A stretch of 20,939 nt of DNA from Myxococcales bacterium. Lineage in GTDB: Bacteria > Myxococcota_A > UBA9042. A program made the position numbers and the translations under genes. This document shows positions 1 to 18,036 of this stretch, piece after piece. The notes beneath the pieces were generated by a model. It did no database searches and had not been told where the DNA came from. It saw nothing but the letters and a program-made list of their open reading frames with translations. Location of the stretch: contig JBBISH010000112.1 in NCBI GenBank assembly GCA_037441385.1, forward strand, positions 1 to 20,939, given 5' to 3'. Positions within the stretch are counted from its first letter, which is position 1. Every line of letters begins with the position of its first letter.

Positions 1-44
1 CCGATCACCTCCAGCAAATCAAGAAACCGCGGCATGGCGCCAGG

Positions 45-137
45 GCCCGAAAGGGGATCCCCCGAGGGTGTCCAGAGGGCCGATGGCCCTTTGGCGCGGG
101 CCGCGCAGGCCGCAGGGGATCGGGGGCTAGGCCCCCG
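45..137. repeat. cluster of short GC palindromes (REP-like)
   Basis: Closely spaced hairpins in non-coding DNA: CCC-GAAA-GGG (46-55), GGGCC-GAT-GGCCC (76-88), CGGGGGC-TAG-GCCCCCG (121-137). Confidence 0.3.
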
Positions 138-431
138 AGTGTCGTCTGAGGCTGCTGGCCTTTTTCCCTCGGCCGCGGTGGCCGGGTGTTCATAGGATCT
201 ATGCGTTGCTGCTTGGCGAGGGTGACTAGGCAAAGGTGTCAGGCATTACCTGCGAACAGCATTCCAAGCAAGTTGTTGACTTTACGCAATTGATCCGGCC
301 AGATGCCTGGACGTGGTGACACCACTGCCGGCAAGACGCATTTCCGCCGCAGACGCTTGACGCCGACTTGCCGCCTGGCGCATCTTGAAGCTGCGGCCCA
401 CCGAACCCAGGCGTGAGCCCGGGAGCCTCTG

Positions 432-1373: not shown

Positions 1374-1523
1374 TGGCGTCCGTGTGTGGTTTGATTTGGT
1401 GTGTGGTGTCCATGGGCCGGGCCGCACGTCCGGGGCAGTGGCGCTAGGTCTCAGGTTTTGCGGACAATTTGCCCGGTTCCCCACCTGGCATTACCAACCC
1501 GAAATTCGCGATGGGTCAAGCCG

Positions 1524-1544
1524 GGGTACAAAATGCCCCCCAAC
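1524..1544 (+). repeat. dispersed copy of the 21-bp motif
   Basis: GGGTACAAAATGCCCCCCAAC, 20/21 identical to 10495-10515. Confidence 0.8.
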
Positions 1545-1671
1545 TTCCACGCGCCGCCGCAATCACGCTCGGAAGTGTGGCTCCAACCTTGGCGCTGGCG
1601 AAACCATTGCCTTTTGGCGCGCCACAGCCAACGAACCCTTAGCCACCGCAAGCGGAGCACTCAAACTCTGC

Positions 1672-2085
1672 CACGACAGCCTGCCTCCCACGGCGCGCGA
1701 GCAGCTCAAGTGGTCGGCATTGCTGGCGATTAGCTCGATTGGCGAGGTGAACCTGCGCGCGCGGGTGGCGATGGCGGCGGTCAGCGAGGGCTGGCCGCTG
1801 GGCAAGGTGCGCGAGGTGGTGGCGCAGGCCCAGGGCGGCCGGGTGTGGGATACGGAGTCCGAGACGCCCGGCCTGCAGCTGCCCGAGCCCAAGCCCGCCG
1901 CCGCGCCGCAGCCCGGCCGCCTGGTGACCCGCACCGAGAAGTGGACCGAGGAAGTCGGCCAGTGGCAGCAGGAATTCGACCGCATCGACGCCAGCAAGCT
2001 GAGCAAGGTCCAGGTCGAGCGGGTGCGCGCGGCGGTGGCGACCCTGCGCGGGCAGCTGGATGCGGTGGAGAAGAGGCTGGGGTGA
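1672..2085 (+). pseudogene. probable 5'-truncated gene fragment, DUF1016_N/YhcG-N-like helical domain plus C-terminal coiled coil
   Basis: Only the 3' part of ORF 1363-2085 has gene-like GC3-rich codons. QLKWSALLAI..RARVAMAAVSEGWPLGKVREVV resembles the DUF1016 N-terminal pattern LSWSH..R..A..GWS..L. No convincing start or RBS; start coordinate approximate. Confidence 0.4.
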
Positions 2086-2090
2086 TGGGG
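1905..2090 (+). repeat. 186-bp direct repeat, copy 1
   Basis: Aligns without gaps to 3057-3242 with 3 mismatches (GAC/GAG, AGC/GGC, GTG/CTG). Confidence 0.95.
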
Positions 2091-2302
2091 GCCGCCCGCC
2101 TGTTCAAGCCGCGTGCTTTGCCGCATGGCCCGCCGGCACCCAAAATCCACCACCGAAATTCCCCCCGGCCGTCGATTTGGGATGCAAATCAAGGCGCAAG
2201 GAACGGAGCGACTGAGGCGACCTAGGGGTCGCCGCAGGGAGAGAAGTGACGCAGCAACGCCGAGTTGCGCCCAAAGCGGCGGATCGGGGGCACCGTTCGC
2301 CC

Positions 2303-2331
2303 TGGCCCCGGCAACCCCTTGTGGCTATACT
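2303..2331 (+). promoter_or_regulatory. putative sigma70 promoter of the TA operon
   Basis: -10 TATACT (2326-2331) with a weak -35 TGGCCC 17 bp upstream, about 40 bp before the ATG at 2373. Confidence 0.4.
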
Positions 2332-2372
2332 GGAAGGGGCGCGCACGGACATGCGTGCCCGCTTGGTACCGG

Positions 2373-2687
2373 ATGAAGCCGCTCTTGGACCCACAACGCG
2401 CCGCCAAGCTTGCCACCCTCTGCGCAAGTTGGGGGATTGCGCGCCTGGAGGTGTTCGGCTCGGCCGTGCGCGGCGAACTGCGGCCCGACTCCGACGTGGA
2501 CTTGCTGGCGAGTTTTGCAGGTGACCGGCACTACGATGCCTTTGCCCTGATGGACTTGCAGGACGAACTGGCCGCGTTGTTCGGCCGGCCGGTGGACCTG
2601 CTGACCCGCCGCGCCGTCGAGCGCAGTCGAAACTCGCTGCGCCGCCAACAGATTCTCTCCGAGGCGGAGGTGCTGGTTGGACCGTGA
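2373..2687 (+). CDS. MNT minimal nucleotidyltransferase antitoxin (MntA-like)
   Basis: 104 aa from ATG 2373. Has the GSX10DXD motif (FGSAVRGELRPDSDVD) and LFGRPVDL. Overlaps the downstream HEPN gene. Confidence 0.9.
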   Translation: MKPLLDPQRAAKLATLCASWGIARLEVFGSAVRGELRPDSDVDLLASFAGDRHYDAFALMDLQDELAALFGRPVDLLTRRAVERSRNSLRRQQILSEAEVLVGP

Positions 2688-3021
2688 CCTGGCCATCCTG
2701 GTCGACATGCTGCGCTTTGCTGGCGAAATGCTGACGATGCGCGAGCGCTTCACCTTGGTGCAGGTCGAGGCCGACGACGTGCTCACTTCGGCCATCCTGC
2801 ACAAGGCCATCATGCTGGGCGAGGCCGCCAACCGCGTATCGGCAGCGGGCCGCGAACGGTGGGCTTTGCCATGGCGCCACATGGTCGGCCTCCGCAACGT
2901 AGTAGTGCACGACTACGACGCCGTAGATCTCGAGGTCATTTGGGCGCTGGGCGAGGTCGAGTTACCGCGACTGGTCGCCCAGCTGCAGACCATCTTGCGT
3001 GACGCGGAGGACAAGAGCTGA
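2677..3021 (+). CDS. HEPN (DUF86) RNase toxin (HepT-like)
   Basis: 114 aa, TTG start. Has the RX4HXY motif (RNVVVHDY) within PWRHMVGLRN..DLEVIW, and LGEAA. Confidence 0.9.
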   Translation: MDRDLAILVDMLRFAGEMLTMRERFTLVQVEADDVLTSAILHKAIMLGEAANRVSAAGRERWALPWRHMVGLRNVVVHDYDAVDLEVIWALGEVELPRLVAQLQTILRDAEDKS

Positions 3022-3056
3022 GCAGTTTCTCGGCTTCGGGGGCAGATTCTGGCGGT

Positions 3057-3242
3057 GCCGCAGCCCGGCCGCCTGGTGACCCGCACCGAGAAGTGGACCG
3101 AGGAAGTCGGCCAGTGGCAGCAGGAATTCGAGCGCATCGACGCCGGCAAGCTGAGCAAGGTCCAGGTCGAGCGGGTGCGCGCGGCGCTGGCGACCCTGCG
3201 CGGGCAGCTGGATGCGGTGGAGAAGAGGCTGGGGTGATGGGG
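3057..3242 (+). repeat. 186-bp direct repeat, copy 2 (duplicated gene 3' end)
   Basis: Near-identical to 1905-2090 and includes the same stop codon. Confidence 0.95.
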
Positions 3243-3420
3243 AGGCAGGTCCGGGGCCTGCCGGATGGCGACCGCCCCGCTCGGCGACGCCGCTCGACGC
3301 AGCCGGCCGCAAACGCCACGCTTTGCGACCGCGACCTGACTGAGCTAGAACACCAACCAGAAACCTCCCTGATCCGGAGCAACGAAGGGACTTGCGGTCG
3401 AAAACCCGTGGATGCTTGGT

Positions 3421-3448
3421 GGGTCGCAAGCGGGCGCTTGCGCGACCC
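3421..3448. other. GC-rich stem-loop between convergent units
   Basis: GGGTCGC-AAGCG-GG-CGCTT-GC-GCGACCC. No U-tract, so not a canonical terminator. Confidence 0.3.
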
Positions 3449-3490
3449 GCCGCGACGTGGGAGCGGGGATTCGGGGTGGTGATCGGTGCT

Positions 3491-4660
3491 CTAGGGCACC
3501 ACGCACGTCGAGTTTTTGGCCTTGCACTTGGCTTCGTCTTTGCACGCGAGCGAGCCGGCGCAGTCGGCGTCCGATAGGGCCGCGCAGCCCCAACCTTTCA
3601 ACTTGCACCGCCCCAATTCCGCGCATGCCTTCGAGGCCGCGCAGTCCGCGTTGGCGGTGGGGCGGCATTGGCCCGACATCGCGTGGCACTTGCCATCGTT
3701 CTTGCACAGAGCCAGCGCGGCACACACGGCATCGCTGGTGGCCTGGCAAGTGCCTCCGACCGCGCTGCAGCGCCCGAGCTCGGTACACATCGTAGTACCG
3801 GCGCAATCTGAGCTCGAAACTGCGACACACTTGCCAGACACCGCATGGCACAGCCCTTGGGTGGCACAGGCCAGAGTCCGGGCGCAGTCGGCGTCGGCCA
3901 CCGCCACGCACTGGCCCTCTTTGGCTCCACACAGGCCCAGGACTTGGCACCACTGCGACGGCAGGCAATCGGAGTTGCTGGCAGCCACGCACCGCGAGCC
4001 AGCGGCAGTACAGTATCCGGCCTGCGCGCACCACGCCGAGGCGGCGCAGTCCGAAGAGTTCGCGGCCACGCAAGCGCAGTCGCTTGCCGTGCAAAGCCCG
4101 TGATCGGCGCATACCTTGGCCGACTTGCAGTGACCATCGCTGGTCGCACCGCAGCGCTTGCCGCAAACCGCGCATGCGCCCTCGATGGCGCAATTGATGG
4201 ACTTTTGGCAGGCCGCGTCGCTTGTGGCGGTGCATGCGCCAGCCACCGCGCTGCACAACCCGTGGTAGACACACGCCGACCAGGTACCCGTGCAGTCCGC
4301 ATCGCTCAGGGCCAAACACAGGCCGTCGCTTGCGCTGCATGCCCCCTCGTTCTGGCACACCGTGGCCTTGAGGCACGCCTCCGAGCTGAACGCCCAGCAG
4401 CGCCCTCCCTGGACCTGGCAATTGCCAAGCGACCGGCAGTCTGAGCTGGCGGCACAGTCCGCGTCGGTAGTGGCCAGGCAGCCGCCGAGATTCTGGGTAC
4501 ACTGGCCGTGGGCGGTGCACGACGCCGTCTCGCGGCAGGGCACCTCGTCACTCCCGGTCGCGCCGTTGCAGCCAGACACGAGGGCGGCCCCGGCGCTGGC
4601 CACCAGAGTCACAAGCCAGACCGCTGCGATCCTCCAGAAACGCAGTATCTTTGTGGGCAT
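3491..4660 (-). CDS. Cys-rich tandem-repeat lipoprotein (13 x ~27 aa)
   Basis: Start reassigned to ATG 4660 (GAGG RBS, MPTKILRF..., lipobox VSG-C). 13 repeats of C-x5-C-x3-G-x-C-x6-C-x7. Confidence 0.85.
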   Translation of the reverse strand: MPTKILRFWRIAAVWLVTLVASAGAALVSGCNGATGSDEVPCRETASCTAHGQCTQNLGGCLATTDADCAASSDCRSLGNCQVQGGRCWAFSSEACLKATVCQNEGACSASDGLCLALSDADCTGTWSACVYHGLCSAVAGACTATSDAACQKSINCAIEGACAVCGKRCGATSDGHCKSAKVCADHGLCTASDCACVAANSSDCAASAWCAQAGYCTAAGSRCVAASNSDCLPSQWCQVLGLCGAKEGQCVAVADADCARTLACATQGLCHAVSGKCVAVSSSDCAGTTMCTELGRCSAVGGTCQATSDAVCAALALCKNDGKCHAMSGQCRPTANADCAASKACAELGRCKLKGWGCAALSDADCAGSLACKDEAKCKAKNSTCVVP

Positions 4661-4789
4661 AGCATCCTCACGTTCGGGAACCTGCGCACAAACCTGCCAC
4701 GCATACGTCGCGCTCCCCCCGTCGCCGGCAGTCCCCGCCGCTGACCCGCCAAGATCGCGACCGCCAAACCGGACCTTCCAGCCTTCGCC

Positions 4790-4955
4790 CGCCAGCCTAC
4801 GCCGCAGCCCGACCCGCGTCAACGCCGCACACTGGTCACCGGACAACCGAATTATTCTGTAAGATCGAACTCTTGACTCAGCCGTCCTTGGAGATGGACG
4901 GCGTCATGCTAGCCCGCTGCTTCAGCGGCTGGTCCCCTCAAAACAGCCGACATTG
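4790..4955 (-). ncRNA. structured intergenic element, copy A (IS110-end/bridge-RNA-like, putative)
   Basis: 4880-4952 matches 10773-10845 at 61/73 nt without gaps. Similarity continues to a shared GCCTACGCCG near 4795. Stems GCCGTCC/GGACGGC and CCGCTG/CAGCGG. Confidence 0.5.
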
Positions 4956-6175: not shown

Positions 6176-6718
6176 TCAGCGCCGGGGCGCCTGCGGCAGC
6201 TTGTCCAACGTCAGCGGGCGGCCGGTGGCCTTTTCAAAGGCGGCCAAGAACTTGGCCAGCGCTGCGGTCAGCTGCGTCCGCGCCGGCGACGGGCCGGGAG
6301 CAAGCACCAGCGCCCCTCGCGCCACGCTCACGCGCAAAACGCCCTCCGGCGAAGCGTGCAGGGACGCGCCGTCCGGCAGCGGCTGCAGGCCCGAGCCCTT
6401 CCGATTGGCCAGCTGCTGGGCCAGCGCCAACAACTGCCGGCCCGCCGCACCCGAGGGCCAGGTCACCGCGTCGTTGTGGTTGAACTCCAGCGGCACGCCG
6501 CCAAAGTACCCCGAGTAGCGCAGCAGGCCATCGCCGTCCAGGGCGTACGACTCGATGAGTTGGTTGGGGTATTTCTTGCCGTCCTGGGGGTGCTCGACCT
6601 CGTACCCCAGCGACAGCACGGTCGTCGCAGGCGTCGCCTTGGGCGTGGCGTGGGCGACCTGAGGCAGCGCGCCGATCGTGACGCTCGCCAGACCAGAAAC
6701 CAGAAGCCGCCGTGGCAT
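6176..6718 (-). CDS. secreted hypothetical protein
   Basis: Start reassigned to ATG 6718 (GGGGGAG RBS). Signal peptide ending AHA. Stop codon is 2 bp from the methyltransferase start, implying an operon. Confidence 0.7.
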   Translation of the reverse strand: MPRRLLVSGLASVTIGALPQVAHATPKATPATTVLSLGYEVEHPQDGKKYPNQLIESYALDGDGLLRYSGYFGGVPLEFNHNDAVTWPSGAAGRQLLALAQQLANRKGSGLQPLPDGASLHASPEGVLRVSVARGALVLAPGPSPARTQLTAALAKFLAAFEKATGRPLTLDKLPQAPRR

Positions 6719-6853
6719 GGACTCCCCCTTGCATGGACCCGGCGCCGGCGTCGCCACCCGCAAAAACACGAACGCCGGTGCGACTCTGCAGCCCCACCGG
6801 CGTTCGCCATTTCTGCGGACCCTTGGCTAACGCGCGGGTCCGTCAGGCACGGA

Positions 6854-7285
6854 TCAACCGCGCTCCAGCTTCTCGACGGCCAGCTCGAGCTCTTCGACGT
6901 TGACGTCGGTGCCCTTGCCGTCCAGGGTGAAGCCCTTCCACTTGGTCGGCCAGCCCTCGAAGAAGTTGTAGCGCATGATCTCGCTGCCGTCGTCGGCGCA
7001 GAGGATCACGGAGCCCGACTTGCGCTGCACCTTGCCCTCGACGACGGCCTTGCGCCATTCCCAGAGCTCAGTGTTGTTGATGTAGCCGCGCTTGAAGGTG
7101 ATGTTGCTGTACTTGGTGCGGCCCGGGCGCTTACGCAGCACCATGTCGTCGCCGTCCTGGTACTCGATGATCTCGGTCTCGCTGTCCAGGCCTTCCACGT
7201 TGCGGAAAGCACCCTGGGTGACGCCTTCGATCTCGATCTTGAAGTTGAAGTTACCGATGTGGTCAAACGCACGACGGTTCGGCAT
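6854..7285 (-). CDS. phage tail tube protein, T4 gp19 / eCIS (Afp1/5-like) family
   Basis: 143 aa with motifs FNFKIEIEG, F..VEGL..E.EIIEYQDG, RKRPGRTKYSNITFKRG, LWEW, WPTKWKG..LDG and EELELAVE. GGAG RBS. Confidence 0.92.
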   Translation of the reverse strand: MPNRRAFDHIGNFNFKIEIEGVTQGAFRNVEGLDSETEIIEYQDGDDMVLRKRPGRTKYSNITFKRGYINNTELWEWRKAVVEGKVQRKSGSVILCADDGSEIMRYNFFEGWPTKWKGFTLDGKGTDVNVEELELAVEKLERG

Positions 7286-7374
7286 CTGCAGTCTCCGGCC
7301 CCCTTCGAGGGCCTAGGCAAGTTGGCCAGGCAGCCCATGCTGCGCAGGCATTCGACGGTATCGCCTGGTCTGCC

Positions 7375-7549: not shown

Positions 7550-8698
7550 CTAGTCGTCCGCCGCCTGGACCACCGTGTTCACCGCCTTCTCGAAGGCGCC
7601 CAGGTCCAGGTTGCCGTTGCCGCTGGGCTGAAAATACATGATCGGCGAGCCGTTCTTGGCAAACCCGTAGCCGCTGTTGCGGATCTCGGAGCCCTTGAAT
7701 TTGCTGGCATGCCCCTCGTTCATCTTGGTCCAGGCATCGACTTGGGCGGTGTCTTGGAGCACCGGGATCGTCTTGACCATCTTGATGAGGTCGGCGGGGT
7801 TCGACGACTGCTTGTCGGCGATGAGCACCATCACCGTGTCGCTGTGGCCGGTGTTGTTGGCCTGATCCTGCAGCTTTTGCATCAATTGGGCCTGCGAGCG
7901 GCACGACGCGCACCAGTCCGAGACCAGCGCCACGACGATCTTCTTGCCTTTGAAAGCCTCGAGGCCATAGCTGGTGTTGTAGAACGGGCTGCCGGGGTTG
8001 ATGTCTTGCAGCTGGAAGGCCGGCAGGTCGTGGAAGGTCTTGACGCACTGCGCCTTTTCGTCGCCGATGCTGGTGATGTCGCCCTTGAAGGCAATCTGCG
8101 CCAGGTCCACGTTGAAGTGGCGGCCCAGGTACTTCATGTTGACGATGCCGCCGAACTGCGGCTGCAGGGTCCGGTTGCGCAGGATCGCTTTGGCCATTCC
8201 GGCTTCGGGCTGACCCAGGGCTTCCAGCGGGAGGCTGCCGGCGGCGCCGACCGACGCGTAGATCACTTCGCTGCTGCTGGGTTCCTTGCTGCTCCAGCCT
8301 GGGCACAGGGCCAATTCGCTGCTGCCGTCGGCCTTGGCGACCTTGGCGCGCGCCCAGAATTTCACACCTTTGAGCTGCAGGCCCTCGCCCTGAAAACCGG
8401 CCTGGTACTCCAGTTCGAGCTTGCAGGTGCCGTCGGGCTGGGCGACCGAGACCGTCAGCGCCGGCACACAGGCCAACCCACCTGGATCCTTGTTGATTTG
8501 GTGCGTCATCGTCGCGACGGCCTTGAGGCCCTTGTACGAAACGGTGACGTCGGTATTGTCGATGCTGGCAGCGAATCCACCGGTGGCGGTCAGGGGCGTA
8601 TCCACGGGCGCGACTTGGGTTACGCCCGCGCTGTCGCACCCCAGCCAGAAGGCGCCCATCGCCAACCCAAGCAACACGGTCCCAACCTTGCCGCGCAT
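7550..8698 (-). CDS. lipoprotein with C-terminal thioredoxin-like (TlpA/AhpC-TSA-like) domain
   Basis: Lipobox WLG-C. C-terminal LPAFQLQDINPGS..FKGKKIVVALVSDWCASC (CxxC)..PVLQD. GGAGG RBS. Confidence 0.85.
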   Translation of the reverse strand: MRGKVGTVLLGLAMGAFWLGCDSAGVTQVAPVDTPLTATGGFAASIDNTDVTVSYKGLKAVATMTHQINKDPGGLACVPALTVSVAQPDGTCKLELEYQAGFQGEGLQLKGVKFWARAKVAKADGSSELALCPGWSSKEPSSSEVIYASVGAAGSLPLEALGQPEAGMAKAILRNRTLQPQFGGIVNMKYLGRHFNVDLAQIAFKGDITSIGDEKAQCVKTFHDLPAFQLQDINPGSPFYNTSYGLEAFKGKKIVVALVSDWCASCRSQAQLMQKLQDQANNTGHSDTVMVLIADKQSSNPADLIKMVKTIPVLQDTAQVDAWTKMNEGHASKFKGSEIRNSGYGFAKNGSPIMYFQPSGNGNLDLGAFEKAVNTVVQAADD

Positions 8699-8789: not shown

Positions 8790-10154
8790 TCAACGTGCCG
8801 CAGGTGTGGCGAATTCGGGCAAAGCCAGTGCATAATCAAAGGCTTCGGACCCCACGCGCCGCTGCCGCAACCGCCCATCGGCGCCGTAGACGTCGACCAC
8901 CGGCAGCCCGGCCACCGCCGGCAGCAGGCGCAGCATCTGCGCGGCGTCCCAGTCGCTGGCGTCGACCCGCACCACCAGCAACTCGGGGTGTGCTTTGGCG
9001 AATTCCTCAAGCTGGACCGAGAGCTTCTGGCACGGCGCACACCAGGTAGCCCAGTAATCCACCAGCGCCACCTGTCCCGGCGGCAGCAGGGCGGCGATCT
9101 CGGGCTGGGGCAGGTCGCCGGGCCGGGCGGGCACGGGCTCGGCCTTGGCCGGATCGCCCAGCGGCTGACTCCACGACAGGCCCACAAAGACCCAGTAAGC
9201 GGGCGGGGTTTGCAGCCCCAACACATCCCGCCACAGGGGCTTGCGGCCGGTCAGGTCCAGCGCGATCTGGTCGGTCAGCTGCCCGCGCAGCGAGGCGGTC
9301 AGGTCCACGTATTCGCCGCCCACGCTGGCCGAGTCGACGCGCACGCCCTGCCAATCGAGTTCACTGGGCATTTTGCGCTGCAGCCAGTCGACCGACAGGC
9401 TCGCCTGCAGCCGCTTGGGCCAGAGCTGCCCCGAAAGCCCGCCGCTGACCGCGGTCTCGCGCTCCCAGCGGAACCCGTCGTTGCAGTCGGCCAGCGGCGT
9501 GCGGGTGCGCAGCGCGGCAAACCAGCCCAGCTGCTCGACAAAGCGGCCGTAGAGCTCGGCGTCGGCCAATAGCCACCACGTGCCGCGGCCCAGCGACAGG
9601 GTCTTGTCCAGCTGCTGCCCCGGTTGCAGTTGCGTCACCTGCAGTTTGGAGACGTAGGGCCCGGTCGGCGCCGCCAGGCCCGCCGTCAGCTGCAGGCGCG
9701 GCAGCCAGCGGCCGTCCAGGCCCAGGAGTCGAAAAACGTCTGAACGCGCCCGAAGTTCCAAGTCCCCCAAGCCGTAGTCGTCTGTGTGGCGACTGTCCGA
9801 ATCGCTGCGGATGCGCCCGCTGGGCAGCAGCAGGCTGGCGCCCAGGCCGCTGGCGTGGTCGATCGCGGCGCTCAACGTAACCAGTTGAAGCGAAATCGAA
9901 AAGTGATCATAGCTGGGCAGCGCCCGCTTGCCGCCGTAGGGCTGGTCGCCGTAGGCGTAGGCATAGGTAAGCCCAGCGCGCACGCGGGTTTGTGGGGCGG
10001 CGGCGCTGCCGTCCAAGGCGCGCGCCATGTCGGTGTCTCCCACCGGGAGAGCGGGGTTGCCTCAGGCCGAGCACTGGGCCTGGGCCGGTGCGCTCCAGCC
10101 CGCCAGCACGGTCAGCGCCAGCGCGACAAGGGCAGCCAAATTCCAAGGTTTCAT
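8790..10154 (-). CDS. putative selenoprotein: signal peptide + CxxU + outer-membrane beta-barrel (Phenol_MetA_deg/transporter-like) + C-terminal thioredoxin
   Basis: ORFs 10062-10154 and 8790-10043 are in the same frame, separated only by TGA 10062-10064: ...AQAQCSA-TGA-GNPALPVGDTDM. GGAG RBS before ATG 10154. Barrel motifs GLGD, PTG, LGRG and amphipathic strands. Trx motif VDYWATWCAPC. 454 aa in total. Confidence 0.8.
10036..10064 (-). promoter_or_regulatory. UGA plus bacterial SECIS-like hairpin
   Basis: UGA, 11-nt spacer GGCAACCCCGC, then stem-loop UCUCCC-GGU-GGGAGA with G/U in the apical loop. Confidence 0.7.
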
Positions 10155-10231
10155 GGGGTGCTCCGCGGGCAGCTGCGCCGACGGGAGTCTGGCATTGCCG
10201 GTCCAGTGCGGCAAGGAGGGCAGGCGTGCGC

Positions 10232-10518
10232 GTTGGGGGGCAATTTCTACCCCGCAATCCGCAAAGCATTTTGGGCGTCCCGGCCCGGCGCACGCCAGGT
10301 TGGGGGGCATTTTCTAAGAGTAGGGGGCAATTTCTGAACGCCACGCCGGGCCGTCGCGCTGCGGCCGCCGGTCGTCGCAAGTGCCGGCGGCGCACTGGCC
10401 TCGTCCTCCCGGCGGTGGCGACGCGGCACCGCGCCGCCACCCCTTCGGGGCCAGCATCGCTGACGCGGGATGCGTGTTTTCCAGCAATTCCGGAGGGTAG
10501 AAAATGCCCCCCAACCTG
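10232..10518. repeat. cluster of GGGTAGAAAATGCCCCCCAAC-type motifs, including a perfect 21-bp inverted repeat
   Basis: Copies at 10232-10252(-), 10296-10316(-), 10321-10336(-, degenerate) and 10495-10518(+). 10296-10316 and 10498-10518 are exact reverse complements. Confidence 0.85.
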
Positions 10519-12526: not shown

Positions 12527-13321
12527 ATGGGCGATCACGTCCAAGTTCTGCGCGAAGGCGACCTGGCCGAAGTGCGCCTGACCCGGCCCGACAAGCGCAA
12601 TGCGCTCAGCTTCGCCATGCTGGGCGACCTGATCGACGCGGCCGATACCCTGAGTAAGGACAAGGCGTTGCGCGCCGTGCTGCTGACCGGGGCCGGCGAC
12701 TGCTTCAGCGCGGGCATCGACCTGGGCGACCTGCGCGACAAGAAACAAGCCCTGCGGGCCGCGTGGGAGCTGGCGCAGCCGACCGCCAACCTCTTTCAGC
12801 GCGCTTTCCTATGTTTTCGCGATTTGCCAGTGCCGGTGCTGGCGGCCATCCACGGCCACTGCCTGGGCGCCGGGCTGCAGCTAGCCCTGGCGGCGGACTT
12901 CCGCATCGCCACGCCCGACGCGCAACTGGCGATCATGGAAGCGAAATGGGGCCTGATCCCGGACATGGGCGCCAGCGTGACCCTGCGCGGCCTGCTTGGC
13001 GCCGACAAGGCGCGCGAGCTGATGATGACGGCGCGGATCGTGACGGGAGAGACCGCGGGCGCACTGGGCCTGGTTAGTCACGTCGACGCGGATCCCCGCG
13101 GCCGGGCGTTGGCGCTGGTCGACGAACTGCGCACCCGCTCGCCCGACGCGATCGCCGCCGCCAAACGCCTGTGCAATGCCATGGAAACTCAAGGTGCTTC
13201 GGCCACGTTGGGCCTGGAACGCCGCTTGCAGACGCGCCTGCTGCTGGGCAAGAACTTTGGCATCGCCGCCAAGCGCGCCAAGCAACCCGAGCTGAGCTGG
13301 AAGCCGCGCAGCTTGGGCTGA
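12527..13321 (+). CDS. enoyl-CoA hydratase/isomerase (crotonase family)
   Basis: Motifs RPDKRNAL, FSAGIDL, IHGHCLGAGLQLALAADFRIA and EAKWGLIPDMG. AAAGGTG RBS. Confidence 0.95.
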   Translation: MGDHVQVLREGDLAEVRLTRPDKRNALSFAMLGDLIDAADTLSKDKALRAVLLTGAGDCFSAGIDLGDLRDKKQALRAAWELAQPTANLFQRAFLCFRDLPVPVLAAIHGHCLGAGLQLALAADFRIATPDAQLAIMEAKWGLIPDMGASVTLRGLLGADKARELMMTARIVTGETAGALGLVSHVDADPRGRALALVDELRTRSPDAIAAAKRLCNAMETQGASATLGLERRLQTRLLLGKNFGIAAKRAKQPELSWKPRSLG

Positions 13322-13425
13322 CGCAAGCGTGGCAATCGGCCAACGCATTGGGGCGGGGCCCTGGTCGATTTCGGGCGACTTGCCCGCCAAGAACGGGTAT
13401 CCTGTTCGGCGTTTGCGGTTCGCCC

Positions 13426-15942
13426 ATGAACCCGCTGGCGCCGACCTACCCGATGAACACCCGCCCTGCCCGCCGCCCCCTCGCGTTCCGTGTACCCATT
13501 CGCACCAGCGGCTTGGCCCTGGCGGCAATGACCAGTCTGTGGCTGGCGACCGCCTGCTCCGACGGAGCGGGGAGTTCTGGCGCGGCCAGCGACACCAGCG
13601 CCGACAGCGGCCACTTGGACTCCACCGCCCTCACCGACGGCAGCGGCGGCGGCGTCACGGCCAACGCGAATGGCCCCAGCGTGGTCACCTGCCCCAAGGC
13701 CCTGCCCGCGCCCAAAGCGGCCGGCAGCTGCGACGTAAGCAAGGGCTCGACCACCCGCGTGATCCGCGGCACCGTCCTGGCCACCGACCACGTGTTCGTC
13801 GGCGGCGAAGTGGTCATCGACAGCAAGGGCAACATCACCTGCGCCGCTTGCGATTGCTCGGCGACCGACGGCTACAGCGGCGCCACCACGCTGCAATGCG
13901 GCGACGCCGTGATCTCGCCGGCGCTCATCAACAGCCACGATCACATCACCTTTGCTCAAAACGCGCCCAAGGCCCACAGCCAGAAGTACGACCACCGCCA
14001 CGAATGGCGCAAGGGCGCCAACGGCAAACAGAAGATTACTGTCCCCGGCGCCCCCAACGGCACCACCGACGAAGTGACCAGTTGGGGCGAGCTGCGCTTT
14101 GTCATCGGCGGCGCGACTTCGACGGTCGGCTCGGGCGGCGTCAACGGCATGCTGCGTAACCTGGACAAGTCCGGAACGATGCAGGGCAATTTGGGCAAGA
14201 CGCCCGTCGATTTCGAGACGTTCCCCCTGGGCGACTCAAGCCCAGACATCAGCAAACCACTGCCGACCACCTGCACCTACAAGATCGCGGTCACCGACCC
14301 GGAAGTCGCCAAAATGACCTCGTTCTTCCCACACATGAGCGAGGGCGTCGACCAGTCGGCCCACAACGAATTCGACTGCACCGACGGCGTCAACGCCCAG
14401 GCCAACTATGAGCGGCCGCAGACCGCGCTCATCCACGCCGTGGGTCTGCGCGCCGCCGACGTCTACCTGGCTGCCAAGACTGGGGTTTCACTGATCTGGT
14501 CGCCGCGCTCGAACATTGACCTGTACGGCTTCACCGCCAACGTTTCGCTCTTTGCCAACTTGGGCGTGCCGATCGCGCTCGGCACCGACTGGAGCGCCTC
14601 GGGCAGTATGAACATGCTCCGCGAACTGGCCTGCGCCGACAGCTTCAATCAGAAGAACCTGGGCGGATTCTTTACGGATTACCAGCTGTTCATGATGGTC
14701 ACCGGCACCGCGGCCGACGCCGCCAAGATGGGCGACGTCTTGGGCCGCATCGGTGTGGGGCGTCCAGCGGACATCACCGTCTTTGCCAGCCACGGCAAGG
14801 CGCCCTACGCGGCGGTAGTGCGCGCCGCCGTTGAGGATGTGGCGCTGGTCTTGCGTGGCGGCGTGGTCCTGCACGGCGACGCGGCCCTGGTCGACGCCCT
14901 CTCCAGCGACGGCGGCGCCGGCTGCGAGGCCCTGAAGAACTGCCTGTCCGGCAAAAAGCTCTGCGCCAAGCGCGAGTTTGGTCAAGACACGGCGGCCCTG
15001 GCCAAGACCATTGGCACCCCGTACGACCTGTACTTCTGTGGTGTTCCGCAAGGCGAACCGTCGTGCGTTCCGTCGCGCAGCGGCGTGTTCACCGGCGAGC
15101 CCAGCGCGACTGACAAAGACGGCGACGGCATCGAAGACAGCAAAGACCTGTGCCCCACGGTGTTTTCGGCGATTCGGCCCATGGACGGCGGCCAGCAGAT
15201 CGACAGCGACGGCGACGGCAAGGGCGACAGCTGCGACGTGTGCCCGCTGACGGCCAACAGCACGGATTGCAGCAAGGTGACGGTCCCCGTCGACGTGCCA
15301 GACACCACCTCGGGCGGCGACACTTCAGGCGGCGGCGCAGACGCGGGCAGCAGCGACGTCCAGCCCACCGCGGCAACGATCCCCGAGCTGAAGAAGATGG
15401 CCGCGGGCACGGTAGTCGAGCTCAAGGGCCTGTGTGTCACCGCCATCCGCACGGTGACCAGTGGCAGCACGGTGTGGGTGCAGCAGCCCGGCCTGACCAG
15501 CGACGGCGGCTACGTGGTGTACAGCAAGACCGCGGTGAGCAACAAGGTCGGCGACCAAATCGACGTGATCGGCGCGGTGGGCGACTTCAAAGGCCTGCCC
15601 GAGCTGCTGACCCCGGCCATCACCACCAAGGGCACCTGCAGCGAGGTCATCCTGCCCGTCGCGGTCTCGCCCTCGGACATCGCCACCGACGGCGCCAAGG
15701 TCAAGACGCTGATGAGCATGCTCGTAGAAGTGAGCGATGTGACCGTGACCGCCGCCGCCGCGACCGCCAAGGACGACTTCTACGTCACCGGCGACCTGCG
15801 CATCTCGCCGTTTGTGTACGCCTTTGACGGCACCAAGTACCCGGTGGGGACGCAGTGGAAGAGCATCCGCGGCGTGCTGGACTGGTACACGGACCACAGC
15901 AAGATCAATCCGCTGTCGGCGGCTGATCTGGTCGAGCCATAG
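13426..15942 (+). CDS. secreted/lipoprotein metal-dependent amidohydrolase with TSP3-like Ca-binding repeats and C-terminal OB-fold-like domains
   Basis: Lipobox-like LATA-C. Metal motifs INSHDH, PHMSEG, LIHAVG and ALGTDW. Repeats DKDGDGIEDSKDLCP and DSDGDGKGDSCDVCP. C-terminal VWVQ..VGDQIDVIG.VGDFKGLPEL. Start is 13426 or 13453. Confidence 0.85.
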   Translation: MNPLAPTYPMNTRPARRPLAFRVPIRTSGLALAAMTSLWLATACSDGAGSSGAASDTSADSGHLDSTALTDGSGGGVTANANGPSVVTCPKALPAPKAAGSCDVSKGSTTRVIRGTVLATDHVFVGGEVVIDSKGNITCAACDCSATDGYSGATTLQCGDAVISPALINSHDHITFAQNAPKAHSQKYDHRHEWRKGANGKQKITVPGAPNGTTDEVTSWGELRFVIGGATSTVGSGGVNGMLRNLDKSGTMQGNLGKTPVDFETFPLGDSSPDISKPLPTTCTYKIAVTDPEVAKMTSFFPHMSEGVDQSAHNEFDCTDGVNAQANYERPQTALIHAVGLRAADVYLAAKTGVSLIWSPRSNIDLYGFTANVSLFANLGVPIALGTDWSASGSMNMLRELACADSFNQKNLGGFFTDYQLFMMVTGTAADAAKMGDVLGRIGVGRPADITVFASHGKAPYAAVVRAAVEDVALVLRGGVVLHGDAALVDALSSDGGAGCEALKNCLSGKKLCAKREFGQDTAALAKTIGTPYDLYFCGVPQGEPSCVPSRSGVFTGEPSATDKDGDGIEDSKDLCPTVFSAIRPMDGGQQIDSDGDGKGDSCDVCPLTANSTDCSKVTVPVDVPDTTSGGDTSGGGADAGSSDVQPTAATIPELKKMAAGTVVELKGLCVTAIRTVTSGSTVWVQQPGLTSDGGYVVYSKTAVSNKVGDQIDVIGAVGDFKGLPELLTPAITTKGTCSEVILPVAVSPSDIATDGAKVKTLMSMLVEVSDVTVTAAAATAKDDFYVTGDLRISPFVYAFDGTKYPVGTQWKSIRGVLDWYTDHSKINPLSAADLVEP

Positions 15943-17120
15943 TGACGCCGGATCGCCCTGAGCCAACCCCGTCGCGCCTGCGCTTTGACCGCCACGAACT
16001 GGCGGGCGCCTTTGGGGATATCGGCACGGACCTGCCGCTGCTGATGGCGCTGATCGCGACGTGCGGCTTGGATGCCGCCAGCGTGTCGATTGCCTTTGGC
16101 GCCCTGCAGATCGCCACTGGGGTGGTGTACGGCTTGCCGATGCCCGTGCAACCGCTCAAGGCGATGGCGGCCATCATGTTGGCGCAGCGTCTGTCGGCCG
16201 GTACGCTGGCGGGCGGCGGCCTGGTCATCGGCGTCACGATGCTCGTGCTGGCGGTCACCGGTACGCTGGATTGGCTGGCGCGGGCGGTGCCCAAGGCGGT
16301 GGTGCGCGGCATGCAGTTGGGCCTGGGCATCACGCTGGCGACGTTGGCCCTGAAGCAATACGCGGGATCAGACGGCGGTGTGGGTTATGCCGTGGCCGGG
16401 TTGGCCACGGTGGTTCTGCTGTTGTTCCGCCGGCAAAAGCGCGTGCCAGCGCCGCTGCTGGTGATGGGGCTGGGCGCACTGTATGCCGTTGCCGTCAAGC
16501 TGGATTGGGCGGCCTTTGGCGGAGCGCACCTGCAGTTGCACCTGCCGACCCTGCACGTGCCCAGCCGCGAAGAACTGGTCCAAGGCGCGCTGTTGCTGGC
16601 GCTGCCGCAAATCCCTCTGTCGCTGGGCAATTCGGTGATCGCCACCAGCCAGACGTCGTACGACCTGTTCCCGGACCGCGGCGTGCCGGTGCGCAAGATC
16701 GGTCTGACCTACGGGCTGCTCAACGTGATTGCCCCGTGGTTCGGCGGCGTTCCGGTGTGTCACGGCTGCGGCGGGCTGGTGGGGTTCTACGGCTTTGGCG
16801 CCCGAACGGGTGGCGCGGCGGTGCTCTACGGCAGCATGTATCTGGTCTTGGGCCTGCTGCTGGCACCGTGGTTCTCGATCCTGACGCAGGCGTTCCCGAT
16901 GCCGGTGCTGGGGGTGGTGCTGCTGTTCGAGGCGGTGGCGCTGATGACCCTGGTCCGCGACGTGGCCAACCATCCGACCGGCCTATGGATTGCCCTGCTG
17001 GTCGCCGCGGCGGTGGTGGGCCTGCCCTACGGCTACGTAGTGGGTATGGTCGGCGGGTCGGCGGTGGCTTTTGCGGCCCAGCGGGGTTGGATTGGCGTGC
17101 CGGCGCTTGAGCACCGATGA
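15942..17120 (+). CDS. putative molybdate/sulfate transporter (MOT1 family)
   Basis: Motifs ELAGAFGDIGT.LP, YGLPMPVQPLKA, PKAVVRGMQLGLG, Q.PLSLGNSVIAT and PVCHGCGGL...Y.FGARTG. GTG start overlaps the upstream TAG. Confidence 0.9.
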   Translation: MTPDRPEPTPSRLRFDRHELAGAFGDIGTDLPLLMALIATCGLDAASVSIAFGALQIATGVVYGLPMPVQPLKAMAAIMLAQRLSAGTLAGGGLVIGVTMLVLAVTGTLDWLARAVPKAVVRGMQLGLGITLATLALKQYAGSDGGVGYAVAGLATVVLLLFRRQKRVPAPLLVMGLGALYAVAVKLDWAAFGGAHLQLHLPTLHVPSREELVQGALLLALPQIPLSLGNSVIATSQTSYDLFPDRGVPVRKIGLTYGLLNVIAPWFGGVPVCHGCGGLVGFYGFGARTGGAAVLYGSMYLVLGLLLAPWFSILTQAFPMPVLGVVLLFEAVALMTLVRDVANHPTGLWIALLVAAAVVGLPYGYVVGMVGGSAVAFAAQRGWIGVPALEHR

Positions 17121-17222: not shown

Positions 17223-17852
17223 TCAAGGAGCGCTGGCCCCGACCAGGCCCTGCACAATCCGCGCGCGCATGGTGTCGCGGGCGGTGCGGAAGCGCGCCAA
17301 GAGCTCGTCGCGGCTCAGGTTGGGATCGCGGCTGGCCGGGTCGGGAACAGAGTAGGCGTAAGCCGAAAAGAAGATCACCTGAAACAACGAGTTGAAGGCC
17401 ACGAGCCCGGCGCAGTACTCGCAGTCGCCTTGGGCCAGGTCGTTCCACACAATCACCATGGCGATGCAGCGCGCCAAGCCGATCAGGATGAGGCCGACCA
17501 TGTATTCGGGCTGGTCGCGCAAGAACAGCACCGCCAGACCGAACATGAGGACGGGGCCGATGACCCAGTTCTGCAGCAGCGACAGCCCCAAAAGGCGCTT
17601 GTTGGCAAAGGCTTTGCCCATCTCCTCGTAGCGGACCTTGGCGAGCGGCGGGTGCATCATCGCCACCAAGCCCACGGCAATCGGGATCGAGGTGGTGCCT
17701 ACGCTCAGGCTTTGGAGCGATCGCGTCACCCCAGGAACCTGCAGCCCCAAGAAGATGCCAAGCGCCATTGCCGCAAAGATCCACAGGGTCAAGTAGCGAT
17801 CCAAGAAGCTCAATTGCCTGAGCAACGTGGGGGAGGAGGCGGAAGAGGGCAG
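17223..17852 (-). pseudogene. acr3: truncated ACR3 arsenite efflux transporter fused in frame to an ArsC (LMW-PTP type)-like C-terminal tail
   Basis: Acr3 motifs [46 protein letters not shown] and LVAFNSLFQ stop after about 165 aa, then [18 protein letters not shown] follows. No in-frame ATG (CTG at 17852). Confidence 0.8.
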
Positions 17853-17879
17853 GCGACACCGCGAGCGCCATCGGCGACT

Positions 17880-17920
17880 TATCGTATTTTTACGATAGGC
17901 CTGAGCGAAGACGCTGTCAA
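17880..17920 (-). promoter_or_regulatory. sigma70 promoter with overlapping palindromic operator (ArsR/SmtB-type)
   Basis: TTGACA (17920-17915), 17 bp, TATCGT (17897-17892). Inverted repeat TATCGTA-AAAA-TACGATA at 17880-17897. Confidence 0.75.
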
Positions 17921-18036
17921 GCCGCGGTCCGTGCCGTTCGCACATGACGCCGCGCAAGAGAATCGCTATCCTGGCCGCTGTGCACGACACCCAAGCGCAT
18001 TGGCCCAGCGCGCCCGCGCGATGTCCAAGGAGACCC

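Follow-up and report, generated by a model that had tools for sequence, protein, structure and literature searches.

The window analysed here is a stretch of 20,939 nucleotides from a genome of a Myxococcales bacterium, and the gene of interest is located on its minus strand (10154..8790). The ORF recognized with translation table 11 is 417 aa long, begins with GTG (8790..10043) and lacks a signal peptide, as the sequence-only reading had stated. That reading had also placed directly upstream, in the same frame, a signal peptide led by a ribosome-binding site and followed by Q-C-S-A, TGA, and GNPALP. Every one of these elements is indeed found on the minus strand, and the frame runs through them into the 417-aa ORF. 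When the TGA is read through, the precursor is 454 residues in length. The features of the gene and of its downstream neighbor, all on the minus strand, are as follows:

10161..10164, minus strand: Shine-Dalgarno-like GGAG, 6 nt 5′ of the ATG (direct reading of the sequence)
10152-10154, minus strand: start codon ATG (reading of the sequence)
10077..10154, minus strand: signal peptide, codons 1-26, MKPWNLAALVALALTVLAGWSAPAQA (translation, judged by eye)
10062..10076, minus strand: predicted mature N-terminus Q-C-S-A-U with the CxxU motif (translation)
10062-10064, minus strand: TGA at codon 31, the proposed Sec codon; GNPALPVGDTDMARAL continues in the same frame (reading of the sequence)
10035..10051, minus strand: bSECIS-like hairpin, stem UCUCCC / GGGAGA, loop GGU (or C-GGU-G) (alignment of 40 sequences)
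9990..10076, minus strand: segment before strand 1, mature residues 1-29, a candidate lumen-occluding plug (AF2 secondary structure)
9159..9989, minus strand: 12-stranded outer-membrane beta-barrel, mature residues 30-306, with an invariant P-T-G motif (AF2, Foldseek)
9105..9158, minus strand: Pro/Ala-rich linker, mature residues 307-324 (AF2 secondary structure)
8793..9104, minus strand: C-terminal thioredoxin domain (Pfam PF00085, E 6.5e-09)
9030-9044, minus strand: active site W-C-A-P-C of the thioredoxin domain (reading of the sequence)
8790..8792, minus strand: ordinary TGA stop of the barrel-thioredoxin gene (translation)
7550..8698, minus strand: partner gene downstream of the barrel gene, 382-aa lipoprotein with lipobox L-G-C (translation)
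7901-7915, minus strand: W-C-A-S-C of the partner (translation)

Cleavage of the precursor by signal peptidase I is predicted after A-Q-A, an A-x-A site recognized by eye, and would leave Q-C-S-A-U at the start of the mature protein, as had been proposed from the translation. Related loci were collected by a contig search; those matching the thioredoxin domain or a fragment only (L047-L080, among them L049, whose match covers residues 231-408) are left out of all counts. The N-termini of two loci (L039 and L041) are cut by a contig end, and 44 loci include the N-terminus. In all 44, Q-C is preceded, as judged by eye, by an in-frame hydrophobic leader with [AS]-x-[AG] at its end, and 39 of them keep the whole arrangement of signal peptide, Q-C-x-x, in-frame TGA, and [GVSAT][NS]P[AST]LP, which is therefore above chance. 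At the aligned codon, position 31, which the sequence-only reading had proposed to check in homologs for Cys or TGA, the other five loci have TGC or TGT and thus encode CxxC. This Sec/Cys pairing extends to full-length database homologs, which read Q-C-x-x-C-G-N-P-A, and a signal peptide followed by QCxxC is found in 21 of the best 150 barrel relatives. Q1, C2, and position 5 (C/U) are invariant in 43/43 aligned barrels.

The existence of Cys forms, in 5/44 loci and in many database proteins, could be taken to mean that the TGA is a nonsense mutation, a mark of a pseudogene, or a sequencing error in a normally CxxC-type gene. Against this, 39 species-level genome bins that were assembled independently, most of them under Myxococcota titles, share the TGA at protein identities down to about 30%, and the frame downstream of it is intact. 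The sequence-only reading had named TGC or TGT in all close relatives, together with a genome devoid of Sec machinery, as the observation that would speak for such damage; the nearest relatives of the window gene (77%, 59%, and 56% identity in tblastn) all have TGA. Since the hairpin described below also accompanies the TGA but not the Cys codons, damage or error is hardly conceivable. Coding is conserved on both sides of the TGA in one frame, with the signal peptide on the 5′ side and the NP[AST]LP motif on the 3′ side. The barrel gene itself terminates at an ordinary TGA stop in the window and in 23 of the 42 complete related loci, so that TGA appears to be recoded by its context rather than reassigned.

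Another way to explain an in-frame TGA is to assume two cistrons: an upstream ORF of 30 codons would end at the TGA and the barrel would start at an internal GTG or ATG, with the hairpin acting as a translational control element whose 3′ arm, GGGAG, is Shine-Dalgarno-like. GGGAGA is indeed located 7 nt 5′ of the ATG of Met43, and gene callers picked a Met43-type start in close relatives. However, a barrel protein cannot reach the outer membrane unless it carries a signal peptide, and the sole one is 5′ of the TGA. The leader is in the same frame in 39/39 TGA loci, while unlinked ORFs share a frame in about 1 of 3 cases. Furthermore, GNPALPVGD between the TGA and Met43 is conserved as protein and is continuous with the leader in the Cys forms, the Met43 position is occupied by I, L, M, or P in relatives, and the called start in one clade is a GTG directly after the TGA. 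Two separate cistrons are thus extremely improbable. Close database homologs, with about 90% query coverage, have their annotated start at a Met immediately beyond the site and carry the name “thioredoxin family protein”; gene finders seem to truncate the gene because the Sec codon is read as a stop.

The hairpin starts 12 nt 3′ of the UGA and its loop starts 17 nt after the UGA. In the alignment of 40 sequences (A2), columns 16-22, 25-26, and 28 are invariant, giving the pattern CTCCCGG..GG.G, and the four core pairs are kept in 40/40 sequences. The flanking pair 15-29 covaries (GC in 17, UA in 10, and unpaired in 13 of the 40 sequences), and its covariation score was reached by 0/500 shuffles. 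Synonymous sites within the hairpin are frozen (Leu CTC 38/38, Pro CCG 38/38, Gly GGA 36/38), while in 37 other conserved 4/6-fold columns the share of the top codon is just 0.32-0.73. Judged from these alignments, the hairpin appears to be under constraint at the RNA level. It is the MFE structure of the 22-nt piece in 40/40 sequences, with free energies from -7.0 to -13.5 kcal/mol (-7.5 or lower in 33/40 sequences), and it is absent from all five Cys forms. The hairpin is short, with an invariant core of 4 bp, and RNAalifold alone reports just the four invariant pairs with a covariation term of essentially nil. The MFE of a 65-nt fragment of the window folded alone is a different local fold (z -1.03), and a single-sequence fold is therefore uninformative here. 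An Rfam scan of 9800-10300 at E <= 10 gave no SECIS family; snoZ6, Lambda_thermo, and mir-3569 came up as sub-threshold chance matches.

The bacterial SECIS model given in section 5 and the Fig. 2 legend of a recent review demands a stem of 4-16 bp, a loop of 3-9 nt with a G in the first two loop positions, a location 16-37 nt after the UGA, and an MFE of -7.5 kcal/mol or lower (PMC13188914). The hairpin of the barrel gene agrees with this model in its loop (C-G-G-U-G / GGU), its 17-nt spacing, and its free energies. Computationally, UGA codon 31 thus appears to be recoded as selenocysteine by way of a bSECIS hairpin.

A similar situation is found in the adjoining gene. A neighbor with a W-C/U-x-x-C motif is present in 41/45 loci, and in 25/45 it belongs to the same family as the partner of the window (the P0075 family). 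Eight of these 25 partners are of the Cys type; in the other 17, a TGA in place of the first Cys of W-C-x-x-C (UxxC) splits the gene at precisely this codon. Each of the 17 has a separate hairpin after it, which resembles that of the barrel gene in its G-G/U loop and shares the 17-nt spacing. The partner is thus probably a second selenoprotein of the UxxC type in one clade of the relatives, while it is a CxxC protein in the window, where its GC3 is 0.87. In 16 further loci, a Cys-rich protein with 31-52 Cys is encoded upstream, and [GV]WCxxC is present in 16/16 of them.

Context-dependent readthrough that inserts Trp, Cys, or Gly at the UGA, with no involvement of selenocysteine, would also leave the frame open. 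The hairpin argues against it, as it agrees with the bacterial model (PMC13188914) in all four points, and Cys is the specific alternative to the UGA at this site, which belongs to a CxxC redox motif. In the partner, TGA and Cys likewise replace each other at the CxxC, together with the similar hairpin and spacing. In addition, supplementary tables of PMC5029168 list SelD and the Sec trait for cultured myxobacteria (Anaeromyxobacter, Haliangium, Myxococcus, and Stigmatella), and ordinary readthrough is accordingly very improbable. A tRNA-Sec gene was not found in the 20.9-kb window or in the 46 flanks; a tRNA-Ala gene is present in one flank only (L024). Taken together, there is little doubt that the barrel-thioredoxin gene is a genuine Sec-decoding gene, as far as comparative sequence analysis can tell.

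The protein encoded by this gene had been guessed from its sequence to be an outer-membrane beta-barrel carrying a C-terminal WCAPC thioredoxin domain, and structure prediction and profile searches bear out both parts. The AF2 model (pLDDT 90.3, pTM 0.78) has 12 strands and a thioredoxin fold. The 12 long strands of the barrel, mature residues 30-306, have pLDDT above 90, while the segment before strand 1 has pLDDT 49-68 with a short helix at 17-21, and its first 16 residues are of low confidence (pLDDT 49-61). The top Foldseek match is 4rl8, a COG4313 protein (E 1.5e-13, TMt 0.79), and the FapF structures 5o65, 5o67, and 5o68 follow with E from about 1e-13 to 4e-11 and TMt 0.69-0.79. The C-terminal domain matches Pfam Thioredoxin (PF00085) at residues 361-404 above the cut-off (E 6.5e-09), as do 66 of 68 relatives, and its profile matches in the PDB are all thioredoxins or PDI domains (best 2vim_A, E 8.5e-14). 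W, C, and C of the active site are invariant in an alignment of 21 sequences and at least 90% conserved in one of 68 sequences. The linker between the two domains differs in length between relatives. A protein-atlas search with the table-11 ORF gave leads only, namely nameless barrel-like clusters, one of them with PF13557 in 16% of its members.

The best structural match is thus the 12-stranded barrel of COG4313 / Phenol_MetA_deg (PF13557), represented by Pput2725 of Pseudomonas putida F1 (4RL8). The identity to 4RL8 is only about 17%, and the window protein has no PF13557 match at E <= 0.01 in Pfam; weak matches occur in 9/68 family members at E <= 0.1 (best 2.5e-05). Because the curated threshold of PF13557 is not reached, the barrel is regarded here as a distant structural relative of COG4313 and not as a member. 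In Pput2725, the N-terminal segment of about 14 residues folds into the lumen (PMC4493636). The window protein likewise has a segment before strand 1, which in Pput2725 is a conserved functional element occupying the lumen. The account of Pput2725/COG4313 in PMC4493636 describes neither a Cys/Sec motif nor a fused thioredoxin domain, and the substrates proposed for COG4313 are hydrophobic organics. FapF, the secretion channel for functional amyloid in Pseudomonas (5O65/5O67/5O68), is also a 12-stranded barrel with conserved PTG motifs, and its lumen is closed by a helix plug that is controlled by a periplasmic N-terminal region. Unlike FapF, which has an N-terminal trimeric coiled coil and a fap operon, the window protein has its periplasmic domain, a thioredoxin, at the C-terminus and a 29-residue CxxU segment at the N-terminus; no coiled coil of the FapF type is present, and no fap-like genes were found near the window gene by Pfam. 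By analogy with these channels, the CxxU pair is placed on a segment that may plug the lumen.

Outer-membrane selenoproteins already in catalogues (NF049945 and NF041027) also carry Sec in an outer-membrane beta-barrel, the first of them also as CxxU (PMC13188914, Table 1; the deep-Sep paper). They differ from the present protein in belonging to different barrel superfamilies, and their catalogue names mention no thioredoxin fusion. TonB-dependent receptors have 22 strands and MtrB has about 26. The read-through protein is matched neither by these two models nor by that of the Trx7/PDZ CxxU selenoprotein NF041199 (NCBIfam, E <= 0.01).

The partner consists of a beta-rich N-domain and a TlpA/ResA-like thioredoxin-fold domain (AF2 pLDDT 86). 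The Pfam match to Redoxin is weak and below the curated cut-off (E 1.3e-05), and Foldseek matches of the C-domain are ResA, TlpA, CcmG, DsbE, and Etrx1 (E about 1e-06, TMt up to 0.79), so that the protein can be described as a lipid-anchored thioredoxin fold with CxxC of the TlpA/ResA/CcmG type. In its C-domain fold and W-C-x-x-C, it resembles TlpA acting on ScoI, ResA/CcmG, and the pneumococcal Etrx lipoproteins. TlpA keeps the copper-site cysteines of ScoI reduced. The logic is that of extracytoplasmic reducing pathways, in which a dedicated reductase keeps a CxxC-type site reduced in an oxidizing compartment. Unlike in those pathways, the presumed client here is the N-terminus of an outer-membrane channel that carries a thioredoxin domain of its own, Sec would replace Cys both in the client (in the window clade) and in the reductase (in the 17 related loci), and no CcdA/DsbD is found nearby. 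The Sec-form partner of these 17 loci, with U-x-x-C in a redoxin-like fold, is similar to catalogued UxxC selenoproteins of thioredoxin fold (Redoxin PF08534, Prx-like, and thiol:disulfide isomerase-like), whereas the partner in the window is a Cys form and the proposed Sec of the barrel protein lies outside any thioredoxin fold.

Conservation does not extend beyond the two-gene module in the 118 flanking ORFs from 29/45 loci (Pfam, E <= 1e-05), among which there is neither CcdA/DsbD nor any recurrent metal or selenium gene. One-off neighbors are TerB (L028), NrfD/4Fe-4S/cytochrome c3 (L006), rhodanese-cytochrome c (L044), and a Cu monooxygenase domain (L032).

From these features, a working scheme can be drawn. 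On the model of COG4313 and FapF, the N-terminal segment would reside in the barrel lumen with the CxxU pair on the channel plug. The pair would cycle between a selenylsulfide and a reduced selenolate/thiolate, and the tethered thioredoxin domain and the partner lipoprotein would re-reduce it, with reducing power coming ultimately from an inner-membrane system of the CcdA/DsbD type; such a system is not seen in the window. The reduced CxxU would then bind or attack a thiophilic substrate in the channel, in a manner resembling TlpA-ScoI. The outline of this scheme, comprising the Sec-containing precursor, the 12-stranded barrel of COG4313/FapF fold, the thioredoxin domain, the two-gene module, and the general idea of a CxxU site maintained by reduction, is highly probable. 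That the thioredoxin domain or the partner serves to reduce the CxxU is somewhat probable, and capture of a thiophilic cargo (soft metals, metalloids, or chalcogen species), as opposed to a role in gating or catalysis alone, is put forward tentatively. The sequence-only reading had inferred a redox-gated or metal(loid)-binding uptake porin, for which the wider family gives some circumstantial support.

Gating would be the main function if the selenylsulfide acted as a latch that locks and releases the plug, with a substrate like that of COG4313, a small hydrophobic molecule, or like that of FapF, an unfolded polypeptide; the upstream Cys-rich protein of the 16 loci is a possible substrate. The kinship in fold to plugged channels, in which transport requires movement of the plug, the control of the FapF plug by its periplasmic N-terminal region, and the upstream proteins with their 31-52 Cys are all consistent with such a latch. 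However, fap-like genes and a coiled coil are lacking here. CxxC forms that consist of the barrel only and lack the thioredoxin domain also exist among the relatives (P0111, P0122, and P0123), and in 40 of the best 150 barrel relatives the CxxC is replaced by a mature N-terminus of A|HH. Because of these two forms, a ligand site seems a better description of the N-terminal motif than a latch, and a redox latch is rather unlikely.

The barrel might also be just a membrane anchor, so that the protein would be a periplasmic oxidoreductase tethered to the outer membrane, in which CxxU, thioredoxin, and partner form a relay of the reductase, isomerase, or peroxidase type and nothing is transported. 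The presence of three redox motifs in two adjacent genes and the resemblance of the partner to the reductases ResA, TlpA, CcmG, and Etrx1 fit this, and Sec typically occupies catalytic redox positions, as in the many CxxU and UxxC oxidoreductases of Table 1 in PMC13188914. But the N-terminal motif stays with the barrel in the three relatives devoid of thioredoxin, the segment before strand 1 opens with three invariant positions (Q1, C2, and position 5), and Pfam and NCBIfam scans revealed no known peroxidase or Msr domain. A mere anchoring role of the barrel is thus unlikely.

A bolder reading can also be imagined. The protein would take the part of DsbD at the outer membrane, in that a Sec/Cys pair on the plug is charged by the protein's own thioredoxin and a (seleno)thioredoxin-fold lipoprotein, and reducing power or a reactive selenolate is presented to the outside. 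Although this is quite unlikely, extracellular thiophilic species (Cu, Hg, selenium or tellurium oxyanions, or polysulfide) would, if it were true, be reduced or captured at entry, and the sister group with the A|HH N-terminus would be a “hard-metal” version of the same device.

The gene almost certainly encodes an undescribed family, an outer-membrane channel with a Cys/Sec pair at its start and a thioredoxin domain at its end. That the architecture is not a described selenoprotein family had been suspected from the sequence, and the catalogues agree: the 119 families listed in Table 1 of PMC13188914, the 2026 review, do not include it, and a scan of the read-through protein against NCBIfam 20.0 gave no selenoprotein model and only weak thioredoxin-domain matches far below the cut-offs. 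Literature searches retrieved no prior description, while candidates in Haft & Tolstoy 2025 or Deng et al. 2026 could overlap, and Myxococcota are not treated as a source of selenoproteins in the literature found.

The family would be a widespread addition to the bacterial selenoproteome in Myxococcota, with at least 39 species-level genomes and probable further clades in protein databases. It would also correct a systematic mis-annotation, in which database entries begin after the Sec codon and have lost both the signal peptide and the active site. The compact SECIS, CUCCC-GGU-GGGAG at 17 nt from the UGA, together with the two-gene module, provides simple search keys for further members. Selenocysteine would be placed at the extreme N-terminus of a mature outer-membrane channel, on a segment that plugs related channels, and this channel has two thioredoxin-fold companions, one a fused domain and the other a separate protein that probably is a selenoprotein too in some lineages. 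Should the relay proposed here prove true, this would be a first case of an outer-membrane pore that incorporates thiol/selenol chemistry and would offer a testable handle on how soft metals or chalcogens are dealt with in the cell envelope.

In the frame opened by the ATG at 10154 of the minus strand, the barrel gene reads MKPWNLAALVALALTVLAGWSAPAQA-QCSA-TGA-GNPALPVGDTDMARAL... and meets no further stop until the TGA at 8792-8790. The sequence-only reading had placed an RBS-led leader, QCSA and a TGA in frame with a barrel ORF of 417 aa lacking a signal peptide; translation bears out the continuous frame, and the ORF call confirms the leaderless ORF.

10154, minus strand: ATG start of the barrel gene, with GGAG 6 bases upstream
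8790..10043, minus strand: longest table-11 ORF, 417 aa, GTG start, without signal peptide
10050-10036, minus strand: stem UCUCCC-GGU-GGGAGA of the window, from the alignment of 40 sequences

Searching the protein database at E <= 0.001 yielded 73 relatives. Every close one (54-87% identity, about 90% query coverage) bears the name "thioredoxin family protein" and has its annotated start at a Met shortly past the TGA position, and several longer, more distant ones carry a signal peptide followed by Q-C-x-x-C-G-N-P-A. Furthermore, a single scan of a species-representative genome collection gave 80 loci (L001-L080), from which L001-L046, mostly with Myxococcota-type record titles, were kept as spanning the barrel region, and L047-L080, matching the thioredoxin domain or a fragment only, were dropped. 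With L039 and L041 set aside, their N-termini being lost at contig ends, 44 loci were left for the codon count. An in-frame TGA lies exactly at the CxxU position (Cys and presumed Sec at the mature N-terminus) in 39 of the 44, where the upstream codons of the same frame give a signal-peptide-like leader and then Q-C-x-x, and a Cys codon stands there in five (TGC in four, TGT in one), so that the proposed comparison of Cys and TGA among homologs came out in favor of a selenoprotein. The window's barrel gene also terminates with TGA, as do those of 23 among 42 complete relatives, indicating that the codon is recoded by local context and not reassigned. With midpoint rooting, which need not give the true root, a tree of 43 complete sequences nests the five Cys forms among the Sec forms as one clade (support 100/99); the window is sister to L001 (77% identity). 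Among the ORFs scanned, the context formed by the window's other genes is shared with L001 only, and in part (enoyl-CoA hydratase and alpha/beta hydrolase). The record titles of four MAGs (L010, L012, L014, L028) name Klebsiella pneumoniae or uncultured Enterobacteriaceae. As the barrel genes of these MAGs fall within clades whose other titles are Myxococcota, the labels are probably wrong.

No tRNA-Sec was found in the window or in 46 flanks of related loci. In Peng et al. 2016 (PMC5029168, supplementary tables), SelD and the Sec trait are listed for Anaeromyxobacter, Haliangium ochraceum, Myxococcus fulvus, and Stigmatella aurantiaca, and Sorangium cellulosum is listed without the trait; among the species listed there, the Sec trait is common in cultured myxobacteria.

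Taken from the 39 TGA loci and the window (n = 40), the 60 nt from the TGA onward align without gaps, with CTCCCGG..GG.G invariant throughout. A stem of CUCC and GGAG is found in 40/40, an extra C-G pair in 28/40, and covariation is seen at one flanking pair, which is G-C in 17 sequences, U-A in 10 and unpaired in 13 (n = 40). When 22-nt pieces are folded, every one of the 40 sequences adopts the hairpin as its minimum-energy structure, at -7.0 to -13.5 kcal/mol (<= -7.5 in 33), and its loop, C-G-G-U-G, starts 17 nt past the UGA. The loop, spacing and energy values fall within all four limits set by the bacterial SECIS model (the Sec-recoding hairpin) as quoted in a 2026 review (PMC13188914). 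Rfam holds no family matching the hairpin, and RNAalifold retains only the four invariant pairs. Covariation by itself is thin support for the hairpin, and conservation at synonymous sites is the stronger argument. Indeed, among complete Sec-form coding sequences (n = 38; L004 and L034, with no stop on the contig, being excluded), the hairpin codons are Leu CTC in 38/38, Pro CCG in 38/38 and Gly GGA in 36/38, while in the 37 remaining conserved columns of four- or six-fold degeneracy the commonest codon has a share of only 0.32-0.73, and GGA is used 1-4 times per column in other conserved Gly columns. The five Cys forms have GCG TTC GCT... at this site and no hairpin, the peptide being AF[AV][SA]G as against ALP[VGA]G in the Sec forms. 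The 3' arm, GGGAGA (10036-10041, minus strand), mimics a Shine-Dalgarno sequence 7 nt 5' of the Met43 ATG (10026-10028), which is probably why gene callers start close homologs at Met43.

The next gene by GC3 analysis, at 7550-8698 on the minus strand, encodes a thioredoxin-fold partner. In its model (pLDDT 86.2), a beta-rich N-domain accompanies a thioredoxin fold, which matches ResA, TlpA, CcmG, DsbE/F, Etrx1, and Sco in Foldseek. A profile of the partner family was run on the ORFs up to 7 kb from the barrel gene at 45 loci (the window and 44 others); a long Cys-type partner was found at eight (window, L001, L002, L005, L007, L009, L010, L034), and a short one, split by an in-frame TGA at its first Cys, directly downstream of the barrel gene at 17.

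7550-8698, minus strand: partner gene of the window, 382-aa lipoprotein with lipobox L-G-C and W-C-A-S-C
L015, L016, L018, L020, L027, L029, L030, L032, L033, L035-L038, L040, L042-L044: split-partner loci (n = 17)
L033:6818-7645: example of a split partner, TGA at 7331-7333, directly 3' of the barrel gene

All 17 short forms read ...LLEGF-TGA-x-x-C-RSQ... where the window partner has ...VSDW-C-A-S-C-RSQ, and each has its own hairpin after the TGA (GGUCCCA-G[G/U]N-UGGGAC, loop 17 nt past the TGA). Since TGA and Cys alternate at the same site and each TGA comes with a hairpin, the partner is also a Sec/Cys pair, and its short form is a second predicted selenoprotein, with U-x-x-C. At 16 other loci, including all five with Cys-form barrels, a Cys-rich protein is encoded upstream on the same strand, with [GV]WCxxC about 110-118 residues from the C-terminus in 16/16; a redoxin domain in these proteins has weak Pfam support (a match in 3/4 scanned at E <= 0.01, in 0/6 scanned at E <= 1e-05). 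Altogether, 41 of the 45 barrel genes have a W-C/U-x-x-C neighbor; the other four are L003 (about 1 kb of flank only), L004 (contig ending inside the gene), L006, and L028. The TGA could instead divide two cistrons, mark a pseudogene or be read through by a means other than Sec, and each of these is contradicted by the conservation of the frame, by the number of independent genomes, and by the SECIS-like hairpins on both genes.

Beyond the barrel-partner pair, no conserved gene was found among 118 flanking ORFs from 29 loci. Elsewhere in the window, a 143-aa ORF (6854-7285, minus strand) strongly matches the T4 gp19-like tail tube protein (PF06841, E 1.4e-38), which points to a phage-tail-like or contractile-injection element; for its neighboring ORF at 6176-6769, Pfam gave no match. 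ORFs in 1-4900 have GC3 of 0.6-0.8, lower and less decisive than the rest of the window, and five of them scanned gave no Pfam or NCBIfam match.

13171-15942: amidohydrolase fused to thrombospondin type 3 repeats
15942-17120: MOT1-type molybdate transporter
17223-18539, minus strand: ACR3/SBF-type arsenite efflux homolog
17944-20937: large Dicty_CTDC-repeat protein

Towards its C-terminal end the barrel protein matches a Pfam thioredoxin domain (E 6.5e-09), its only Pfam match. A structural model was built for the mature read-through form (428 aa), with U as C, from a 68-row alignment (mean pLDDT 90.3, pTM 0.78).

Residues 1-16: low model confidence
Residues 17-21: short helix
Residues 30-306: twelve long strands
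Residues 307-324: linker
Residues 325-428: thioredoxin fold

Both the beta-barrel and the C-terminal thioredoxin claimed from the sequence are thus recovered, outer-membrane channels being the best Foldseek matches. Against the PDB, the COG4313 channel Pput2725 comes first (4rl8, E 1.5e-13, TMt 0.79) and the FapF amyloid secretion channel next (TMt 0.69-0.79), with FadL, autotransporter barrels and OmpG far below. The window protein has no match to PF13557 (Phenol_MetA_deg), to which 9/68 relatives match weakly. Some 14 N-terminal residues of Pput2725 are described as folded into the lumen, and the N-termini of TcpY and SphA as about twice as long (PMC4493636); for FapF, a helix plug, a periplasmic control region and conserved PTG motifs are described (PMC5557850), and PTG is conserved in the window barrel family too. 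By analogy, the 29-residue segment opening Q-C-S-A-U may occlude the lumen.

A barrel-only profile collected 1031 cluster representatives at E <= 0.001 (284 at <= 1e-10, 67 at <= 1e-30), and N-termini of the best 150 were sorted by a crude regular expression. A signal peptide with QCxxC was found in 21, 12 with and nine without the thioredoxin domain; 40 are barrel-only with the mature N-terminus A|H-H, 24 begin directly past the expected Sec site, and 65 are fragments or unclassified. Among the nine, P0111, P0122, and P0123 are apparently complete barrel-only proteins keeping Q-C-A-A-C, so the CxxC/U N-terminus goes with the barrel and thioredoxin is an add-on. The A|HH proteins (in P0158-P0241) are about 330-350 aa long and have A|HHG[ST]..R[VI]G where Q-C-x-x-C/U otherwise sits; two Cys lie in the last strands of the five examined. 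Eight others (P0169, P0177, P0178, P0185, P0207, P0211, P0213, P0237; roughly 310-470 aa, thioredoxin motif in 7/8), whose annotated start, "MNPNLPVGGSA...", is one residue past the expected Sec site, are probably another TGA-containing clade.

The architecture is absent from the 119 families in Table 1 of PMC13188914, where the nearest in kind are the FCYXU-type TonB-dependent receptor, the GSU2204/MtrB-PioB barrel and Trx7/PDZ, and the protein matches no NCBIfam 20.0 model of these entries. A full-text literature search, covering recent catalogues incompletely, found no prior description. As far as that table and NCBIfam 20.0 go, the earlier remark that this is not a described selenoprotein family stands, and the barrel-thioredoxin proteins are rated a new predicted one.

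The barrel gene combines a Sec-type recoding signature, an export signal, a barrel fold and a thioredoxin domain, and its conserved partner shows a Sec/Cys switch like its own. The first mature residues are the family signature: they are either His-His or Cys-x-x-Cys/Sec, an alternation that hints at a putative ligand- or metal-binding site. The CxxU would sit on the channel plug and cycle between a selenylsulfide and a reduced form, re-reduced by the tethered thioredoxin domain and the partner lipoprotein; when reduced, the pair would capture or attack a thiophilic substrate in the channel. In rival readings of its role, the protein might instead be a redox gate of a transport channel or an outer-membrane-anchored periplasmic oxidoreductase.
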